Sequence record: OQ349392.1 | Origin: Escherichia phage KIT06 | DNA length: 64,000 nucleotides | Strand: one strand, 5' to 3' | Part shown: in pieces, positions 3,227-54,886 of the stretch | How positions within the stretch are numbered: position 1 is the first letter of the stretch | Layout of the letters: each line of letters starts with the position of its first letter | Notes under the pieces: generated by a model | Database searches by the model: none | Told to the model about the DNA's origin: nothing | Seen by the model: the letters and a program-made list of their open reading frames with translations, nothing else | Made by a program: the position numbers and the translations under genes

Positions 3227-3766
3227 ATGAGAACATTTTTAACTGGTCCTTATCTATCCCTGATGAATGCTTTTACACACCATTCTGATGCTAGAGTAGA
3301 AGAAATTTGTAAAAACGATTATATCCCACCATTTGAAGACTTACTCAAACAGTATTGTACACTTCGTTTAGATGGTGGCAGACAATCTGGTAAATCAACT
3401 GCAGTAACTAATTTTGCCGCTAATTGGTTATATGATGGTGGAACAGTTATTGTTCTTTCTAATACTTCAGCTTATGCTAAAATTTCTGCGGGCCACATTA
3501 AAAAAGAATTTTCTCGTTATTCTAGCGATGATATTCGATTCCGCTTATTTACCGATTCTGTCCGTAGTTTTATCGGTAATAAAGGAAGCAAGTTCAGAGG
3601 TTTATTGCTTTCGCGAATTTTGTATATAATTGATGATCCTGTTAAAGCTCCTGATATGGATAAAATTTACGATATTCATATTGAAACTGTGCACCACTGT
3701 TGCAATAGTAAATGCTGCATTGGTGGTATTACTCGTCCACAGTTTTTCATAATCGGAATGCAATGA
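3227..3766 (+). CDS. hypothetical P-loop NTPase
   Basis: Walker A GGRQSGKST and Walker B-like ILYIIDD; start 3227 chosen for GAGAG SD (ORF track start 3179). Confidence 0.45.
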   Translation: MRTFLTGPYLSLMNAFTHHSDARVEEICKNDYIPPFEDLLKQYCTLRLDGGRQSGKSTAVTNFAANWLYDGGTVIVLSNTSAYAKISAGHIKKEFSRYSSDDIRFRLFTDSVRSFIGNKGSKFRGLLLSRILYIIDDPVKAPDMDKIYDIHIETVHHCCNSKCCIGGITRPQFFIIGMQ

Positions 3767-4092
3767 TGACAGACACGCAACTTTTCGAATATCTTTATTT
3801 TTCGCCAAAAACTGTTAAAAATAAATTGGTGAATCATTTTGAAATTTTGGCAAATAACAACGTCTTGAGCGAATTTTATCCTAAGCAATACAAACTACAA
3901 AAAGGTGTATTCAAAGGATGCAGAGTTTTGTGCACTGCTCCTAATGTAAGATTAATGAATAAAATTCCATATTTTACCATGGAATTTATTGATGGGCCTT
4001 TTAAAGGACTAATCACGCAGAGTTTAATGGCATATGATTCTGAGCCATTTTTAATTAAAGAGCAATCTTGGATAAATTTATTTTCTAATTGA
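3763..4092 (+). CDS. hypothetical protein
   Basis: ATGA overlap with upstream stop; first in-frame ATG of ORF 3712..4092. Confidence 0.45.
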
Positions 4093-4100
4093 GAGGTTAT

Positions 4101-4463
4101 ATGAAAGCATATCAAATTCTTGAAGGCACGCATAAAGGTACTATTTATTTTGAAGACGGTATTCAAGCACGAATTATTGTCTCTAAAACTTTTAAAGAGG
4201 ACTCTTTTGTAGACCCAGAAATTTTCTATGGTTTGCATGCCCGTGAAATTGAAATTGAAACACAACCTACAGTTAAAATTGAAGGTGGTCAACACCTGAA
4301 CGTTAACGTTCTGCGTCGTGAAACTCTGGAAGATGCAGTTAAGCATCCGGAAAAATATCCGCAGCTGACCATCCGTGTATCCGGTTATGCAGTTCGCTTT
4401 AACTCTCTGACTCCGGAACAGCAGCGCGACGTTATCGCTCGTACCTTTACTGAGAGTCTGTAA
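4101..4463 (+). CDS. autonomous glycyl-radical cofactor (GrcA/YfiD-like; T4 Y06I-like)
   Basis: C-terminal 60 aa [59 protein letters not shown] matches E. coli GrcA glycine-radical motif RVSGYAV; SD GAGAGG before ATG 4101. Confidence 0.8.
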
Positions 4464-4684
4464 TGGCAAAGATAATTATTGAAGGTTCTGAAGATGTGTT
4501 AAATGCTTTCGCCGAATGGTTTAGTAATTCAGGCGAACAGCAATTTAATGAAGCGTGGAACATGGGTGATATTAGTGGAATTTATCCTACGACAGAAATT
4601 TCTGTTCAGGGATATGGCATTCATGAGCCTATTCGTTTAATTGAATATGATTTGGGTACTGGTGAGGAAGTAAAATATGATTGA
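4463..4684 (+). CDS. hypothetical protein
   Basis: 73-aa ORF, ATG overlapping upstream stop (TAATG). Confidence 0.45.
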   Translation: MAKIIIEGSEDVLNAFAEWFSNSGEQQFNEAWNMGDISGIYPTTEISVQGYGIHEPIRLIEYDLGTGEEVKYD

Positions 4685-4943
4685 AGATATTAAGGGTTAT
4701 AAGCCACATACTGAAGAGAAAATCGGTAAAGTGAATGCTATCAAAGATGCTGAAGTTCGTTTAGGACTTATCTTTGATGCTTTATATGATGAATTCTGGG
4801 AAGCACTAGATAATTGTGAAGACTGTGAATTCGCGAAGAATTATGCTGAAAGCCTTGATCAGTTAACTATTGCTAAAACTAAACTCAAAGAAGCCAGTAT
4901 GTGGGCTTGTCGTGCTGTGTTCCAACCAGAGGAAAAATATTAA
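4677..4943 (+). CDS. hypothetical protein
   Basis: 88-aa acidic ORF in vs.x region; short overlap with neighbours. Confidence 0.45.
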
Positions 4944-5221
4944 TGGCTCAATTAAGCGCAGGGTTTGGTTATGAGTATTATACTGCCCCTCGTCGTGTAT
5001 CTGTTGCTCCTAAGAAAATTCAAAGTCTTGATGATTTCCAGGAAGTAATTCGTAACGCTTTCCAGGACTATGCGCGTTATCTTAAAGAAGATTCACAGGA
5101 CTGTCTCGAAGAAGATGAAATTGCTTACTATGAGCAGCGTCTTGAACAGCTTAAAAACTTACATGAGGTTCGTGCAGAAGTTTCAAAGTCTATGAATAAA
5201 TTGATTAGATTTAAAGAATAA
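4943..5221 (+). CDS. hypothetical protein
   Basis: 92 aa from first ATG (ORF track 4901 is a non-ATG start); TAATG overlap. Confidence 0.45.
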
Positions 5222-5280: not shown

Positions 5281-5742
5281 ATGACTATCAACACAGAAGT
5301 TTTTATCCGTCGAAATAAGCTCCGTCGTCACTTTGAGTCGGAGTTTCGTCAAATTAACAATGAGATTCGTGAGGCATCAAAAGCAGCAGGGGTCTCATCG
5401 TTTCATCTAAAATATTCTCAGCATCTTCTTGATCGTGCAATTCAACGGGAGATTGATGAGACATATGTTTTTGAATTATTCCATAAAATAAAAGACCATG
5501 TTTTAGAAGTTAATGAATTCCTGAATATGCCTCCACGCCCTGACATTGACGAGGATTTTATTGATGGGATTGAATATCGTCCTGGGCGTTTAGAAATCAC
5601 AGATGGAAATCTTTGGCTTGGATTTACAGTTTGTAAACCTAATGCGAAGTTCAAAGACCCGTCGCTTCAATGCAGGATGGCAATTATCAACAGTCGTCGT
5701 TTACCGGGAAAGGCTTCTAAGGCAGTAATTAAAACTCAATGA
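5281..5742 (+). CDS. regB: RegB site-specific endoribonuclease
   Basis: 153 aa, same length as T4 RegB; sequence recognised (MTINTEVFIRRNKLRR...); own early promoter. Confidence 0.9.
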   Translation: MTINTEVFIRRNKLRRHFESEFRQINNEIREASKAAGVSSFHLKYSQHLLDRAIQREIDETYVFELFHKIKDHVLEVNEFLNMPPRPDIDEDFIDGIEYRPGRLEITDGNLWLGFTVCKPNAKFKDPSLQCRMAIINSRRLPGKASKAVIKTQ

Positions 5743-5749
5743 GGTAAGC

Positions 5750-6295
5750 ATGAGAAAAGCACTACTCGCTGGTCTATTGGCCATTTCTATGATGGCACAT
5801 AGCTCCGAGCATACTTTCAGTAATGTCCAACTCGATAACATGCGTTACGCGTATCAATTCGGGGAACAATTTTCTAAGGATGGAAAATATAAAACACACA
5901 AAAATATCCACAAGAGCGGATTAGGTCATATAATGGCTGCTATTTTATGGCAAGAAAGCTCTGCCGGAGTTAATTTAAAATCTAAACCAAAGCATCATGC
6001 CTACGGAATGTTCCAAAATTATTTGCCGACCATGCGCGCAAGAGTTAAGGAACTTGGTTATAATATGACCGATGCCGAAATAAAAAGAATGTTGAATAAA
6101 CGGTCCAATTCAGCTTCCTGGGCGTACATTGAACTTTCTTATTGGTTAAATATACATAAGGGCGATATAAGAAAAGCAATATCCTCTTATAATTCGGGAT
6201 GGAATGTTAAAGCAGGTTCTAAATATGCTTCTGAAGTCCTAGAAAAGGCTAACTACCTTAAAAATAATAAACTGTTGGAAATAGTAAATGACTAA
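5750..6295 (+). CDS. secreted lytic-transglycosylase-like protein (vs.1 position)
   Basis: Signal peptide MRKALLAGLLAISMMAHS; SLT-like motifs WQESS and SYNSGWN. Confidence 0.55.
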   Translation: MRKALLAGLLAISMMAHSSEHTFSNVQLDNMRYAYQFGEQFSKDGKYKTHKNIHKSGLGHIMAAILWQESSAGVNLKSKPKHHAYGMFQNYLPTMRARVKELGYNMTDAEIKRMLNKRSNSASWAYIELSYWLNIHKGDIRKAISSYNSGWNVKAGSKYASEVLEKANYLKNNKLLEIVND

Positions 6296-6629
6296 AATTT
6301 TGGTTTTATGTGTAGGATTAATTTCATTTTCTGCGTTAGCAGATATATCATATTCTGAAGTTAGAGAGTATGTAAACCGTACTGCCGCGGATTATTGTGG
6401 GAAAAATAAAGCATGCCAAGCTGAATTTGCGCAGAAATTAATATATGCATATAAAGACGGAGAAAGAGATAAATCAAGTAGATACAAGAACGATACTTTA
6501 TTAAAACGATATGCTAAAAAGTGGAATACCTTAGAATGTTCAGTTGCGGAGGAGAAAGATAAAGCCGCTTGTCATTCAATGGTTGACCGTTTAGTAGATT
6601 CTTATAATCGAGGATTGAGTACTAGATGA
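6288..6629 (+). CDS. small secreted protein (vs position)
   Basis: 113 aa, signal peptide MTKILVLCVGLISFSALA, several Cys; position corresponds to T4 vs but identity not verified. Confidence 0.45.
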   Translation: MTKILVLCVGLISFSALADISYSEVREYVNRTAADYCGKNKACQAEFAQKLIYAYKDGERDKSSRYKNDTLLKRYAKKWNTLECSVAEEKDKAACHSMVDRLVDSYNRGLSTR

Positions 6630-7105
6630 TTGTAAAATATATCAAGGGCGATATTGTCGCCCTATTTCTTCAAGGTAATATTATTGCGCACGGGTGCAAT
6701 TGTTTTCATACTATGGGTTCAGGTGTAGCAGGTCAATTAGCAAGGGCCTATCCTAAAATTTTAGAAATAGATAAAACTACTACCGAGTACGGTTCTCGCG
6801 ATAAATTAGGCGATATGTCTATTGTTTTTAAACATAGTCCTACGGGATTTGGTATATGCTATAACCTGTATACGCAATACGAACCGGGTCCTAATCTTGA
6901 TTATGGTGCTTTAGTAAACTGCATGATAGAATTAAATCTACAGGCAGAGACCCTTTTGTTTAAACCAGTAATTTACATTCCACGCATAGGTTGCGGTATT
7001 GCTGGCGGTGATTGGGATAAGGTTTCTAAATTAATCGATATGTTTACTCCTGATATTGATTTAATAGTGGTGGATTATGAAAGTACATTACCCGCATCCG
7101 TTTGA
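6626..7105 (+). CDS. macro-domain protein (ADP-ribose binding/hydrolase-like)
   Basis: 159 aa; KGDIVALFLQGNIIAHGCNCFHTMGSGVAGQL and IPRIGCGIAGGDW match macro-domain glycine-rich loops. Confidence 0.6.
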   Translation: MIVKYIKGDIVALFLQGNIIAHGCNCFHTMGSGVAGQLARAYPKILEIDKTTTEYGSRDKLGDMSIVFKHSPTGFGICYNLYTQYEPGPNLDYGALVNCMIELNLQAETLLFKPVIYIPRIGCGIAGGDWDKVSKLIDMFTPDIDLIVVDYESTLPASV

Positions 7106-7289
7106 TCCTAAAAACAAAGCGGAAATTATTCGTCAATGGGAACGCATTTGCCGTACTAAATGCCCAATTAATAGTTCTCATGATGTAGATAAAGATTATA
7201 TTGGAACATTCGTTGAATATACCTTTATTGATAGGAAAGGTCGTAAACAACATGTAGAAGAATATTGCTTAAAGGTTACATGGTTATGA
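7077..7289 (+). CDS. hypothetical protein
   Basis: 70-aa ORF between macro-domain gene and tk, overlaps neighbours. Confidence 0.4.
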   Translation: MKVHYPHPFDPKNKAEIIRQWERICRTKCPINSSHDVDKDYIGTFVEYTFIDRKGRKQHVEEYCLKVTWL

Positions 7290-7471
7290 GTCTGAGTAAA
7301 GAACAAAAAGATAAATTGTTTGAGCTTATCCATGAACTTCTAGATGAGCATACAGAAGCAAACACCTTTTATGATGAATACGGCCCGCTATCTCCCGAAC
7401 AGCAAGAAGAATTTGCTGACCGGTTTGATAAGAAAGAAAACGAATTAATAGCTTATGTGAATACGCTTTAA
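7280..7471 (+). CDS. hypothetical protein
   Basis: 63 aa from ATG 7280 (ORF track 7265 is TTG); acidic. Confidence 0.4.
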   Translation: MVMSLSKEQKDKLFELIHELLDEHTEANTFYDEYGPLSPEQQEEFADRFDKKENELIAYVNTL

Positions 7472-7480
7472 GAAGGTGAT

Positions 7481-8062
7481 ATGGCGAGTTTAATTTTTAC
7501 TTATGCAGCAATGAATGCTGGAAAATCTGCTTCTCTTTTGACTGCTGCGCATAATTATAAAGAACGCGGAATGGGTGTATTAGTTCTTAAACCTGCTATT
7601 GATACTCGCGATTCTGTCTGTGAAGTCGTTTCTCGCATTGGAATTAAGCAGGAAGCGAATATTATTACGGATGATATGGATATTTTTGAGTTCTATAAAT
7701 GGGCTGAAGCACAAAAAGATATTCATTGCGTATTTGTAGATGAAGCTCAGTTTTTAAAAACTGAACAGGTGCATCAATTAAGCCGAATTGTCGATACATA
7801 CAATGTTCCTGTTATGGCTTATGGTCTAAGGACTGATTTCGCTGGAAAATTATTTGAAGGTTCTAAAGAACTTTTGGCGATTGCAGATAAACTTATTGAA
7901 CTAAAGGCAGTTTGTCATTGCGGTAAAAAAGCGATTATGACGGCTCGATTAATGGAAGATGGAACACCAGTTAAAGAAGGTAATCAAATCTGTATTGGTG
8001 ATGAAATTTATGTTTCTTTGTGCAGAAAACATTGGAATGAATTAACTAAAAAGCTCGGTTAG
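7481..8062 (+). CDS. tk: thymidine kinase
   Basis: 193 aa, same as T4 Tk; P-loop AAMNAGKS, zinc-ribbon CHCGKKA...C; SD AAGGTG. Confidence 0.95.
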   Translation: MASLIFTYAAMNAGKSASLLTAAHNYKERGMGVLVLKPAIDTRDSVCEVVSRIGIKQEANIITDDMDIFEFYKWAEAQKDIHCVFVDEAQFLKTEQVHQLSRIVDTYNVPVMAYGLRTDFAGKLFEGSKELLAIADKLIELKAVCHCGKKAIMTARLMEDGTPVKEGNQICIGDEIYVSLCRKHWNELTKKLG

Positions 8063-8104
8063 TGCAAAAGTTATAAATAGGTTTATCTAACTAAAGGGGT
8101 ATAT

Positions 8105-8317
8105 ATGCTACAATTAACTGAAAAGCAACTTCGCAATCTTACTGTTCTTCAATTAGATGAAATTCGTAGGGAAGTTGGAAATATCATTTCAGCTTTGCGT
8201 CGAGAAGTATCACTCAACCAATCTCCGGCAGACTATACTAGATTGCGAAATTTTGAAAAATACCTTGATAAAGTTAAGGCCGTGCATCGGCACAAAGTAA
8301 ATACAGGACAAAAATGA
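8105..8317 (+). CDS. hypothetical protein (rI.1 position)
   Basis: 70-aa ORF between tk and rI; TATAAATA late-promoter-like motif at 8072-8079 upstream. Confidence 0.5.
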
Positions 8318-8329
8318 TAGGAGGCCTTT

Positions 8330-8623
8330 ATGGCCTTAAAAGCAACGGCACTATTTGCCATGCTAGGATTAGCGTTTGCTTTATCTCCACCGATTGAAGC
8401 GAATGTCGATCCTCATTTTGATAAATTTATGGAATCTGGCATTAGACATGTTTATATGCTTTTTGAAAATAAAAGCGTAGAATCATCTGAACAGTTCTAT
8501 AGTTTTATGCGAACGACCTATAAAAATGACCCGTGCTCTTCCGATTTTGAATGTATAGAGCGAGGCGCGGAGATGGCACAATCATACGCTAGAATTATGA
8601 ACATTAAATTGGAGACTGAATGA
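8330..8623 (+). CDS. rI: lysis inhibition regulator RI
   Basis: 97 aa; signal anchor MALKATALFAMLGLAFALSP and remainder near-identical to T4 RI as recalled. Confidence 0.9.
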   Translation: MALKATALFAMLGLAFALSPPIEANVDPHFDKFMESGIRHVYMLFENKSVESSEQFYSFMRTTYKNDPCSSDFECIERGAEMAQSYARIMNIKLETE

Positions 8624-9006
8624 AATTCAGCGACTTTTCACAAAGTGGAAAACCTTCAAAGGCAGATGAATACTTAGGTTTATTAATGGCTGCACAAGCT
8701 TATTTTCATTCTGCACATTTTGAAACTAAAAGTTATGCTAGACACAAAGCATACGATTTTATTTTCTCTGAGTTGCCAGATTTGATTGATAAATTTGGTG
8801 AGCAATATTTGGGGTATTCTGGTAGAAAATACACACCTTCTATTCCAGATGCCAGTAAACTTCCTACCGACACAATTAAAATGATTGATCGCATATTAGA
8901 CCAATCTAACAGCATTTACAAAGAAATGCCTCCAGCCATTCAAAGCACGATAGATGATATTACTGGAATGTTTTATCAAAGTAAATATCTTCTTTCCCTC
9001 GAATAA
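8620..9006 (+). CDS. hypothetical protein (rI.-1 position)
   Basis: 128-aa ORF, ATGA overlap with rI stop, followed by terminator. Confidence 0.55.
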
Positions 9007-47862: not shown

Positions 47863-48156
47863 ATGAAAAAATTTGTTTTTGCTGCAATTTTTGCTTTGGC
47901 TTCTTGTGCTGCTCAGCCTGCTATGGCGGGTTATGATAAAGATTTGTGCGAATGGTCTATGACTGCAGATCAGACTGAGGTTGAAACTCAGATTGAAGCA
48001 GATATTATGAATATCGTTGAGCGTGATCGCCCTGAAATGAAAGCTGAAGTACAAAAACAGCTTAAGTCTGGTGGTGTAATGCAGTATAATTACGTTCTGT
48101 ATTGTGATAAAAACTTCAATAATAAAAATATCATCGCTGAAGTAGTAGGTGAATAA
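47863..48156 (+). CDS. sp: spackle periplasmic protein (superinfection exclusion)
   Basis: 97 aa; signal peptide MKKFVFAAIFALASCAAQPAMA; near-identical to T4 Sp as recalled. Confidence 0.85.
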   Translation: MKKFVFAAIFALASCAAQPAMAGYDKDLCEWSMTADQTEVETQIEADIMNIVERDRPEMKAEVQKQLKSGGVMQYNYVLYCDKNFNNKNIIAEVVGE

Positions 48157-48782
48157 TGCTCTATCAAATGCACAAGTGTAAAGACACGTACAATTATAAA
48201 GGTGCCCAGTGTTATATCATCAATCGTGAAAACGTGGGTCCAGGTCATTCGCATCAATCACGGTTTGTATTCGTTAAAAATAATGAAATTATAGCAGTTG
48301 CTAATTACATGCTTGTGACTAATGATGTTAATCCGGTGCCTTTTACGTATTATAATCTAATGGATTTGGCGTACGATTATAATTGGTTTAATCATGATAA
48401 TTTGGCTCATATTGAAGGCGTAGGATTTGACATCTCTTATTCTAGTTACTCGTTGTGTCCTATGAGCCGAGCTCATAAAGAGCCTGAATATTTTTCATTT
48501 CGTCGGCGTGTAGACTTTGAACGCAGCACAGAGTATATCGGTGGAATTTTTGTTAAAGATAATCGAATTACTCGCATTATTTATCCTTTGGGCTGTGGTC
48601 AAAAAGATATTGATGTTGATTTAGACTTTACTGAAAACATCATTAATCATATTGCTTCTGTGTATTTTGATATTGATCATAAAATTGTAATATGTGGATA
48701 TGAATTACCATCAGAAAAACAGTCTAAAGTGAATGTTTCTATTGATGACCAAATTTTTAATGCTTTTATGAATAGAGGTTAA
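48156..48782 (+). CDS. hypothetical protein
   Basis: 208-aa ORF, ATGA overlap with sp. Confidence 0.5.
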   Translation: MLYQMHKCKDTYNYKGAQCYIINRENVGPGHSHQSRFVFVKNNEIIAVANYMLVTNDVNPVPFTYYNLMDLAYDYNWFNHDNLAHIEGVGFDISYSSYSLCPMSRAHKEPEYFSFRRRVDFERSTEYIGGIFVKDNRITRIIYPLGCGQKDIDVDLDFTENIINHIASVYFDIDHKIVICGYELPSEKQSKVNVSIDDQIFNAFMNRG

Positions 48783-50249: not shown

Positions 50250-50768
50250 ATGCCACATTTTAACGAATGTAGTCATCTGATCGAAGGCGCTGATAAAGCT
50301 CAAAATGAATACTGGGATATTCTCGGTGATGAAAAAGACCCGCTGCAGGTTATGCTTGATATGCAGAAATCTTTGCAGGTTCGTTTAGCTAAAGATAAAC
50401 CTGAATATAACCGTCATCCTGATGATTTGGCTACTGCTGGTGAAGTTGTTGATTGGCTGCGTAATCAGAAAGATTATATTGATGATGAATTCCGCGAACT
50501 TCTGACTTCTCTTGGCGGTATGAGCAATGGCGAAAAAGATGCATCTGCTGTATGGAAACCTTGGAAGTCACAGCACGGTGAACGCCGTGAAACTCTAATT
50601 ACTGATTTGTCTCCACAAGACCAGTTAGAAATTAAATTCGAAATGATTGATATTCTTCATTTCGTTCTGAATATGTTCCAAGGTCTCGGTCTTACGGCTG
50701 AAGAAATCTTTAAACTTTATTATCTGAAAAATGCTGAAAACTTCGCTCGTCAAGATCGAGGTTATTAA
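50250..50768 (+). CDS. 56: dCTP pyrophosphatase gp56
   Basis: 172 aa, MazG-like; MPHFNECSHLIEGADKAQNEYWDILGDEKDP... matches T4 gp56 as recalled. Confidence 0.92.
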   Translation: MPHFNECSHLIEGADKAQNEYWDILGDEKDPLQVMLDMQKSLQVRLAKDKPEYNRHPDDLATAGEVVDWLRNQKDYIDDEFRELLTSLGGMSNGEKDASAVWKPWKSQHGERRETLITDLSPQDQLEIKFEMIDILHFVLNMFQGLGLTAEEIFKLYYLKNAENFARQDRGY

Positions 50769-52781: not shown

Positions 52782-52938
52782 ACAGAGATATGACGCTAGA
52801 AGAGGCCAAGGCTAAAGCAAATGAAGCATTGGATTTGCTTCTTAAAATCGGTAGTAAAATGATGAAAGAAAATGAGAAATATATCCAGGAAAACAAAATT
52901 CCTGACGGCCCGTTAGTAGGCAAGAGGAAATCACATGA
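52777..52938 (+). CDS. hypothetical small protein
   Basis: 53-aa ORF with ATGA overlaps at both ends. Confidence 0.35.
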
Positions 52939-53405
52939 TTGAAGTAGCAAAACATTATTCAATAGAATTTATGTCTAAAGAAGGTAAATCGGTAAATACA
53001 CTTGATAAAGAGTGCTCATTAATTATTCCTTTAGCAGAAAATCCGGATATTTTAATTAAAGATATAAAAGAAAGAAAATATCCAGAAAATGTTATTCTAA
53101 TTATAAAGCATACTGAAGATATTTTGCAGAATACTGATTCACCGTTTTCTTCTTCCGAAGCTTTAACTATTAAAGGCTATAAAAGAGCCCATGAATATGG
53201 TCTTTTTGACCTGTTTGAAGACGATAAAGTTAAATTAGCGAGTCAACCTTCTAAAAGTAAAACATTCATTATTGAAGATATTAAAGATATAAATGCATTT
53301 GTTAAGATGGTCTGGGCTCATTTTGATGTTGGACTACGCTGGAGAATGTCCGAAGAAGAAAGAAAAATTATTGAAGCTAATCGTTATTTTGGTTTTTATC
53401 GCTAG
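52935..53405 (+). CDS. hypothetical protein
   Basis: 156-aa ORF. Confidence 0.5.
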
Positions 53406-53637: not shown

Positions 53638-53663
53638 AGCTTCTGAAGTATATGGAGGCTATC

Positions 53664-54287
53664 ATGATTATTAATCTTGCAGATGTTGAACAGTTATCTA
53701 TAAAAGCTGAAAGCGTTGATTTTCAATATGATATGTATAAAAAGGTCTGTGAAAAATTTACTGACTTTGAACAATCAGTTCTTTGGCAATGTATGGAAGC
53801 CAAAAAGAATGAATCTCTTCATCGGCAGTTGAATAAAATCATTAAAAAGCATTTAACTAAATCACCTTATCAGCTATATCGTGGTATATCAAAATCGACA
53901 AAAGAACTCATTAAAGATTTACAAGTTGGAGAAGTGTTTTCAACGAATAGAGTAGATTCATTTACTACTAGTTTGCACACAGCATGTGGTTTTTCTTATG
54001 TTGAGTATTTCACTGAAATAATATTTCGCTTAAAAACTGATAAAGCTTTTAATTATTCTGACCATATCAGCGATATTATACTTTCTTCTCCTAATACTGA
54101 GTTTAAGTATACATATGAAGATACTGATGGATTAGATTCAGAACGTACTGATAACTTAATGATGATTGTGCGTGAACAAGAATGGATGATTCCAATTGGA
54201 AAGTATAAAATAACTTCTATTTCAAAAGAAAAATTACACGATTCGTTTGGAACATTTAAAGTGTATGATATTGAGGTAGTTGAATGA
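53664..54287 (+). CDS. modB: ADP-ribosyltransferase ModB
   Basis: 207 aa from ATG 53664 with SD GGAGG; R-S-E motifs (LYRG, STS-like FTTS, EQEWMIP); paralog of downstream gene. Confidence 0.75.
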   Translation: MIINLADVEQLSIKAESVDFQYDMYKKVCEKFTDFEQSVLWQCMEAKKNESLHRQLNKIIKKHLTKSPYQLYRGISKSTKELIKDLQVGEVFSTNRVDSFTTSLHTACGFSYVEYFTEIIFRLKTDKAFNYSDHISDIILSSPNTEFKYTYEDTDGLDSERTDNLMMIVREQEWMIPIGKYKITSISKEKLHDSFGTFKVYDIEVVE

Positions 54288-54886
54288 AATATTCAGCAAT
54301 GCAATTAAAAGATTTTAAAATCAAATCAATGGATGCATCGGTGCGTGCTTCTATTCGTGAAGAATTACTTTCTGAAGGATTTAATTTATCCGAAATTGAA
54401 CTTTTAATTCATTGTATTACTAATAAGCCAGACGATCATTCTTGGTTAAATGAAATAATCAAATCTCGTTTGGTTCCAAACGATAAACCTCTTTGGAGAG
54501 GTGTTCCAGTTGAGACTAAGCAGGCGTTAAATCAAGGAATTGATATTATTACATTTGATAAAGTAGTATCAGCTTCATATGATAAAAATATAGCTTTACA
54601 TTTTGCTTCTGGATTAGAATACAATACACAAGTTATTTTTGAATTCAAAGCTCCTATGGTATTTAATTTCCAGGAGTATGCTATAAAAGCTTTACGTTGT
54701 AAAGAATATAGTCCGAGTTTTAAATTTCCAGATAGCCATCGCTATCGTAATATGGAATTAGTTTCAGATGAACAAGAAGTAATGATACCAGCTGGAAGTG
54801 TATTTAGAATTGCGGATAGATATGAATATAAAAAGTATTCAACATACACTATCTATACTCTTGATTTTGAAGGATTTAATCTATAA
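54284..54886 (+). CDS. modA: ADP-ribosyltransferase ModA
   Basis: 200 aa as in T4 ModA; R-S-E motifs (LWRG, SAS, EQEVMIP). Confidence 0.75.
   Translation: MKYSAMQLKDFKIKSMDASVRASIREELLSEGFNLSEIELLIHCITNKPDDHSWLNEIIKSRLVPNDKPLWRGVPVETKQALNQGIDIITFDKVVSASYDKNIALHFASGLEYNTQVIFEFKAPMVFNFQEYAIKALRCKEYSPSFKFPDSHRYRNMELVSDEQEVMIPAGSVFRIADRYEYKKYSTYTIYTLDFEGFNL

Follow-up and report, generated by a model that had tools for sequence, protein, structure and literature searches.

The gene tk.4, in the 64,000-nucleotide stretch of Escherichia phage KIT06 DNA analyzed here (“the window”), encodes a single-domain macrodomain protein of the ALC1-like class. The gene is already known: it is the ortholog of T4 tk.4 (adfM), whose T4 member has a published anti-DarTG2 phenotype. 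We consider it likely that the protein neutralizes DarT2 as an ADP-ribosyl-thymidine DNA glycohydrolase of the lysine-independent, SCO6735-like kind. DarTG systems stop a phage by attaching ADP-ribose to its DNA, and host range is decided by the phage enzymes that take this mark off again. A preliminary description of the window had listed, among other options, that the macrodomain might counter a host defense based on ADP-ribosylation; this option proved to be right, as the orthologous tk.4 of T4 is needed against DarTG2 (bioRxiv 10.1101/2025.11.20.689424).

The open reading frame lies within a tight string of same-strand genes (see the table). Its ATGA overlap with vs suggests co-transcription and, putatively, translational coupling in the regB-vs.1-vs-tk.4 string. 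A promoter scan of the tk.4 region yielded 13 promoter-like sites, compared with 14.8 expected from shuffled sequences, and thus showed no excess; the sole terminator-like hairpins found on the + strand were inside coding sequence. A promoter or terminator of its own was therefore dropped for tk.4, and we count the gene with the transcription unit upstream of it. The region from 5700 to 8100 is matched by 756 phage records, mostly of T4-like phages of Escherichia and Shigella, with Shigella phage SH-1 as the best match (99.1%).

The interval between tk.4 and tk holds tk.3 and one 68-aa ORF in the window, tk.3, tk.2 and tk.1 in T4, and four small ORFs in phage HY01; in the window, the last 29 nt of tk.4 also belong to tk.3, vs. 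4 nt in T4. Farther upstream, a NUDIX hydrolase gene (1069-1524; Pfam 8e-14), in the position of T4 e.1/nudE, adjoins the phage lysozyme gene (1561-2055). It is speculation on our part that a NUDIX ADP-ribose pyrophosphatase could use up the free ADP-ribose released by a macrodomain.

Features of the tk.4 region, and of adfA, modB and modA, with positions counted from the first nucleotide of the window
Feature	Position	Strand	Basis or remark
regB	5281..5742		Pfam REGB_T4
vs.1	5750..6295		SLT domain
vs	6288..6629		directly upstream of tk.4
ATGA start/stop overlap of tk.4 with vs	6626..6629	+	coordinates and sequence
tk.4 (adfM) coding sequence, ATG to TGA, 159 aa + TGA	6626..7105	+	single-domain macrodomain, ALC1-like (TARG1/DarG/SCO6735) class
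Perfect 8-bp-stem hairpin AGGGCGATATTGTCGCCCT, codons 7-13	6645..6663	+	terminator-like scan; within the 38 nt identical to T4
Loop 1, H22-L38	6689..6739	+	alignments; invariant H22, G23, N25, C26, G33, A35
Gln84 codon CAA, NLYTQY motif	6875..6877	+	aligns with DarG K80, TARG1 K84, SCO6735 Gln85
Loop 2, G122-W130 (diphosphate-binding glycine loop)	6989..7015	+	alignment
tk.3	7077..7289		DUF7202
tk.2-like ORF, 68 aa	7265..7471		DUF7438
tk	7481..8062		downstream of the tk.2-like ORF; followed by rI.1, rI, rI.-1
adfA (T4 gene 61.2), anti-DarT factor A	48156..48782	+	Pfam PF23813, E=5e-134; 95.7% identical to T4 gp61.2
modB	53652..54287	+	PHROG 832; 96.1% identical to T4 ModB; T4 annotation
modA	54284..54886	+	PHROG 832; 97.0% identical to T4 ModA; T4 annotation

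Orthology with T4 tk.4 was evident from both synteny and full-length homology. The T4 RefSeq gene in the same slot between vs and tk.3 (vs-tk.4-tk.3-...-tk) is tk.4 (NP_049723), annotated as “phosphatase; contains A1pp phosphatase motif”. Other records name the gene “Macro domain-containing protein” or “RNase III inhibitor”; thus, its macrodomain nature was already in the databases. The two proteins, of 155 aa in T4 and 159 aa here, align over their full lengths (58% identity over 154 aa, E=7e-70; PHROG 335, 1e-71). They have in common the invariant residues H22, N25, C26, D49, N80, Y82, Q84, G122, G124 and W130; loop 2 reads GAGIGKGNW in T4 Tk.4 vs. GCGIAGGDW in the window protein.

The phenotype of the T4 gene comes from a HIDEN-SEQ preprint, in which a T4 transposon library was grown on a DarTG2-expressing host and tk.4 was the single significant hit (bioRxiv 10.1101/2025.11.20.689424). 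A clean deletion of tk.4 sensitized T4 to DarTG2; the AlphaFold2 model of T4 Tk.4 resembled the DarG macrodomain from Mycobacterium tuberculosis, and the gene was renamed adfM, for anti-DarT factor macrodomain (10.1101/2025.11.20.689424). This evidence is genetic, comes from a preprint and concerns the T4 allele only. Our literature searches for a biochemical assay of any T4-type Tk.4 protein found none.

The protein from the window has the macro fold. Pfam PF01661 (Macro) matched it over profile positions 2-117 of 118 (E=1.3e-7), its 32 bits exceeding the gathering threshold of 22, and a phmmer search of the PDB with the tk.4 protein returned BT1257, Poa1p, SCO6735, DarG and TARG1. A profile built from 48 family sequences and searched against the PDB found BT1257 (4e-19), TARG1 (3e-17), SCO6735 (2.5e-15), Poa1p (1.5e-14) and DarG (1e-11 and 1e-9), with coronavirus and alphavirus macrodomains reaching only about 4e-3. 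The preliminary description had pointed to macro-domain glycine loops in the 159-aa ORF, and both motifs are indeed present: HGCNCFHTMGSGVAGQL at residues 22-38 and GCGIAGGDW at residues 122-130. It had also named a non-macro fold in a structure prediction as the outcome that would speak against it. Structure prediction gave the opposite result: an AlphaFold2 model, computed from an input alignment without the T4 row, has the three-layer alpha/beta/alpha macro fold, with a pLDDT of 95.0 and a pTM of 0.89. The proposed comparison with MacroD/YmdB, however, was aimed at the wrong class. The NCBIfam deacetylase model scored the protein at 15.7 bits vs. a cutoff of 291; its class is the ALC1-like one (TARG1/DarG/SCO6735) and not MacroD/YmdB.

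Does such a protein keep the residues on which catalysis depends in its class? We compared the family with the macrodomains of M. tuberculosis and Thermus aquaticus DarG, BT1257, SCO6735, ALC1, TARG1, PhiKZ gp104 and E. coli DarG2, the last being the protein used in the phage experiments. The answer was divided: N25, Q84 and G124, a site of the SCO6735 type, are kept, and the lysine of DarG and TARG1 is missing. Asn25 (codon 6698-6700) aligns with SCO6735 Asn27 and with the corresponding Asn of PhiKZ AdfM and DarG; it is present in 119 of 121 family rows, the remaining two being gapped there. Gln occupies the catalytic-lysine position in all 121 retrieved family members, the window protein and T4 Tk.4 alike. 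When the tk.4 family was aligned with hhalign to M. tuberculosis DarG (probability 97.9) and E. coli DarG2 (98.8), Gln84 fell opposite Lys in both, and MAFFT alignments concurred. Lys is found at this position in E. coli DarG2 (NFPTKDSW) and PhiKZ AdfM (FPTKDNW); Gln is found there in SCO6735, BT1257 and ALC1. In loop 2, G124 aligns with SCO6735 Gly128, and Ala126 sits at the position of the catalytic Asp125 of TARG1. G122 and G124 are kept in 119 of 121 rows (all those covering the position) and W130 in 120. The residues H22, C26, D49, Y82 and W130 are invariant and specific to the phage family, as is the HGCNC motif.

Gln-type sites were also found in distant phage homologs, namely those of Felixounavirus wV8, Pakpunavirus JG004, Bacillus phage Chewbecca, Streptomyces phage DekoNeimoidia and Sinorhizobium phage phiM19. 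Some of the distant homologs have features of their own. The Felix O1-like wV8 protein (locus L006, 1495-2280) carries an extra C-terminal segment of ~100 aa, and in the homolog of Cronobacter phage CR3 (locus L008, 1486-2016) the Gln that is otherwise invariant is replaced by Arg (LYGR). In Pseudomonas phage JG004 (locus L007, 1-1980), a nicotinamide phosphoribosyltransferase gene is followed by one small ORF and then by the macrodomain homolog, an arrangement that hints at a connection with NAD+ salvage in this lineage of phages.

Since the lysine that serves DarG and TARG1 in catalysis is absent, the case for activity depends on the analogy with SCO6735. On DNA, that enzyme removes ADP-ribose from thymidine at a higher rate than DarG or TARG1 do, and it rescues DarT toxicity (PMC9411070). 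Its Q85A and Q85E variants are inactive, N27S nearly abolishes activity, and G128 matters (PMC9411070); these are the residues that correspond to Q84, N25 and G124 of the tk.4 protein. The authors proposed a lysine-independent mechanism with a water positioned by the protein backbone, that of Val25 being put forward for this role (PMC9411070); G23 of the tk.4 protein aligns with Val25. Later work confirmed the activity of SCO6735 on thymidine-linked ADP-ribose (T-ADPr) and added an activity on uracil-linked ADP-ribose (U-ADPr) in RNA.

We infer the enzymatic activity of T4-type proteins, their SCO6735-like mechanism and the same function for the 58%-identical allele in the window. The free-standing 159-aa macrodomain would be made from the pre-replicative regB-vs.1-vs-tk.4-tk gene string. 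Host DarT2 would put ADP-ribose on thymidine of single-stranded phage DNA and so block replication; the phage enzyme would take up the ADP-ribose between its glycine loops, residues 31-35 and 122-128, and break the bond of the ribose to the thymine, yielding free ADP-ribose and a restored base and allowing the phage to escape DarTG2. Gln84, held by Asn25, would stand in for the catalytic lysine in the arrangement of SCO6735, by a water- and backbone-mediated route. The protein would thus do the antitoxin's job without being a copy of the antitoxin. Among the points that count against a DarT2-directed hydrolase are that the allele is only 58% identical to that of T4, that its loop 2 is changed, that its mobile loop is 5-6 residues shorter than those of SCO6735 and BT1257, and that ALC1, with the Gln in common, is a non-catalytic binder.

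The divergence of the allele is local. At the nucleotide level, tk.4 is 69% identical to its T4 counterpart, whereas the flanking regB, vs.1, vs, tk, rI.1, rI and rI.-1 (5281-9006) are 95.6-100% identical to those of T4 at the protein level; the tk.2-like ORF has diverged as well (54%). The first 38 nt of tk.4 are identical between the two alleles, which diverge directly past the hairpin listed in the table. This hairpin may be a recombination boundary or junction, an RNA element or a by-product of the coding sequence. A tblastn search of phage genomes divided the T4-like phages into two allele classes, with ~312 records at least 90% identical to the window protein and T4-type sequences at ~56-63%. 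The island of divergence resembles the result of a mosaic allele replacement, as is common among anti-defense genes; tk.4 is a locally hypervariable allele, as expected of an arms-race gene. Another local island of divergence was seen at the homolog of gene 56 (dCTPase/dUTPase; 50250-50768), which is 74% identical to T4 gp56 next to a gp61 at 98.5%.

Is DarT2 the only target? With the published cloning primer as a guide, we traced the E. coli darTG2 locus of the T4 experiments and found it in 10 of 5,426 complete E. coli genomes, with megablast and the more sensitive blastn in agreement; the search was made at the DNA level, and more diverged DarT2 alleles are missed in this count. The locus (L012, E. 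coli RM10809-3 chromosome, 3622-5179) occupies a P2-like prophage hotspot, where a replication endonuclease, a DinI-like gene and a Dam methylase adjoin it. With darTG2 present in ~0.2% of complete E. coli genomes and tk.4 retained almost throughout the T4-like phages, the gene may have other targets besides DarT2, or a main target other than DarT2. It is conceivable, if rather unlikely, that T4-type AdfM is more than a DarG mimic, being an ADP-ribosyl-glycohydrolase of distinct, lysine-independent (Gln-type) mechanism that accepts a wider range of substrates. Such substrates could, for example, comprise both thymine-ADPr DNA and uracil-ADPr RNA, as for SCO6735, or the marks of uncharacterized ADP-ribosylating defenses. 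If true, this would explain why the gene is retained in nearly all T4-like phages and in many unrelated large phages despite the rarity of darTG2. The two allele classes might then reflect adaptation to different toxins of the host, or evasion of a host factor by which the macrodomain is sensed or inhibited.

The T4 annotation raises the alternative of an enzyme acting on small molecules: a Poa1p-like ADP-ribose-1''-phosphate phosphatase, an O-acetyl-ADP-ribose deacetylase, or a degrader of ADP-ribose-derived immune signals or toxins of the Thoeris or RES type. We regard this as improbable. T4 is not known to encode a Tpt1/KptA, from which Appr>p or Appr1p would arise. The label “phosphatase” was inherited from a motif rather than from an assay, and the sole phenotype found for tk.4 is DarTG2 sensitivity. 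Moreover, SCO6735, the nearest relative with this Asn/Gln/Gly site to have been dissected by experiment, acts as an ADP-ribosyl hydrolase on nucleic-acid bases.

The preliminary description had linked the macrodomain to ModA and ModB, which it placed in the same window. Both genes are there; the link itself found no support. According to this idea, the macrodomain would erase or read the phage's own marks, namely those put by Alt, ModA or ModB on RNA polymerase, S1 or EF-Tu, or the RNAylation by ModB. Alt, ModA and ModB modify arginine, in part according to the T4 annotation, and activity on this linkage is unreported for the TARG1/DarG/SCO6735 class. An arginine-specific macrodomain, Legionella MavL, is cited in PMC13036486, so reversal of Arg-linked ADP-ribose may be chemically possible; besides, the tested members of the class can also act on ADP-ribose linked to proteins, TARG1 at Glu/Asp and SCO6735 on protein substrates (for SCO6735, PMC9411070). 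Against the idea, the macrodomain family occurs in 2,859 phage records from many host genera (including phages of Pseudomonas, Vibrio, Acinetobacter, Aeromonas, Bacillus, Streptomyces and Sinorhizobium), whereas Mod-type ADP-ribosyltransferases occur in 1,012, all of them enterobacterial and T4-like, which indicates that the macrodomain is independent of the Mod enzymes. In addition, tk.4 lies about 47 kb from modA and modB, and in the T4 screen it scored under DarTG2 only (10.1101/2025.11.20.689424). A role in the phage's own ADP-ribosylation is therefore quite improbable. Upstream of modB are two paralogous T4_MRH-family proteins (PF24070; 52106-52603, 4e-41, and 52935-53405, 2e-38) corresponding to T4 mrh and modA.3. 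The window also encodes AdfA, which is unrelated to Tk.4 and has been reported to inhibit DarT1 directly (PMC11257639, PMC13309987); the phage thus stacks anti-DarT functions.

Very improbable, in our estimation, is protection by binding, in which a catalytically dead reader of ADP-ribose would shield the modified DNA, or would sequester or inhibit DarT2 as AdfA does DarT1. The presence of Gln where DarG and TARG1 have their catalytic lysine speaks for it, as does ALC1, a non-catalytic binder with Gln at the same position in our alignment. AdfA and AdfB, moreover, are direct inhibitors of DarT (PMC13309987). Yet the Gln-type site is fully catalytic in SCO6735, which is faster than DarG on T-ADPr DNA (PMC9411070), and the Asn and Gly required for catalysis are kept throughout the tk.4 family, in contrast to ALC1 (HCVDD, IGHATKG). 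The 159-aa tk.4 protein also does without the C-terminal DarT-binding domain of DarG (323 aa in E. coli DarG2).

A captured DarG antitoxin was ruled out: the protein has neither the catalytic lysine nor the C-terminal domain, its gene has no adjacent darT, and DarG models gave it ~27 bits vs. 133 for PhiKZ AdfM. In detail, NCBIfam NF048014 (DarG) scored 27.7 bits vs. a cutoff of 250 and covered profile positions 2-142 of 338 only; the PADLOC DarG model scored 27.5 bits (positions 3-144 of 329) for the window protein and 132.9 bits for PhiKZ AdfM. The neighbors of tk.4 are vs, vs.1, regB, tk.3 and tk, whereas in the E. coli darTG2 locus darT is immediately upstream of darG. A toxin-linked origin was dropped, too, as a search for DarT beside a bacterial homolog (Pelagimonas P0094) found only housekeeping neighbors.

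Among characterized macrodomains, Streptomyces coelicolor SCO6735 (PDB 5E3B) and Bacteroides BT1257 (2FG1/2AFC) have the Gln in common with the tk.4 protein. Both are of the same Gln-type ALC1-like subclass, with an identity of only 27%. The “mobile loop” that follows the Gln is extended in these two proteins; it reads TQYEPGPNLDY in the window protein vs. GQHGMKTGSKGAPVRY in SCO6735, and the phage loop, rather than being ~5 residues longer than those of DarG and TARG1, is as short as theirs. The basic loop residues of SCO6735, which were proposed to aid processivity on DNA, are missing in the phage protein. SCO6735 is, furthermore, a cellular, DNA-damage-inducible protein and not an anti-defense factor. 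Human TARG1/OARD1 has a Lys84/Asp125 dyad where the tk.4 protein has Gln84/Ala126. Yeast Poa1p is a small-molecule phosphatase, an activity that for the phage protein is only a database label.

DarG from T. aquaticus, M. tuberculosis and E. coli (DarG2; PDB 5M31, 5M3I) has a catalytic Lys80 in the place of Gln84, macrodomains 21-28% identical to the tk.4 protein and, with its C-terminal DarT-binding domain, a length of 323-360 aa. PhiKZ gp104, which also bears the name AdfM, has the same proposed role as the tk.4 protein, that of a stand-alone phage macrodomain reversing DarT2 modification. It removes ADP-ribose from DarT2-modified TNTC DNA in vitro (Cell Rep 2026, PMC13309987). A mutant in its conserved catalytic-site Asn (construct N23A) is less active, and the protein rescues DarT2 toxicity (PMC13309987). 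PhiKZ AdfM, however, is of a DarG-like sub-lineage: it keeps the Lys, has 21% identity with the window protein and enters the phage nucleus by import. To judge from their sequences, the T4-type and PhiKZ-type AdfM look like independent recruitments from different ALC1-like branches, which share a name and probably a substrate but are likely to differ in their chemistry, Gln-type in one and Lys-type in the other.
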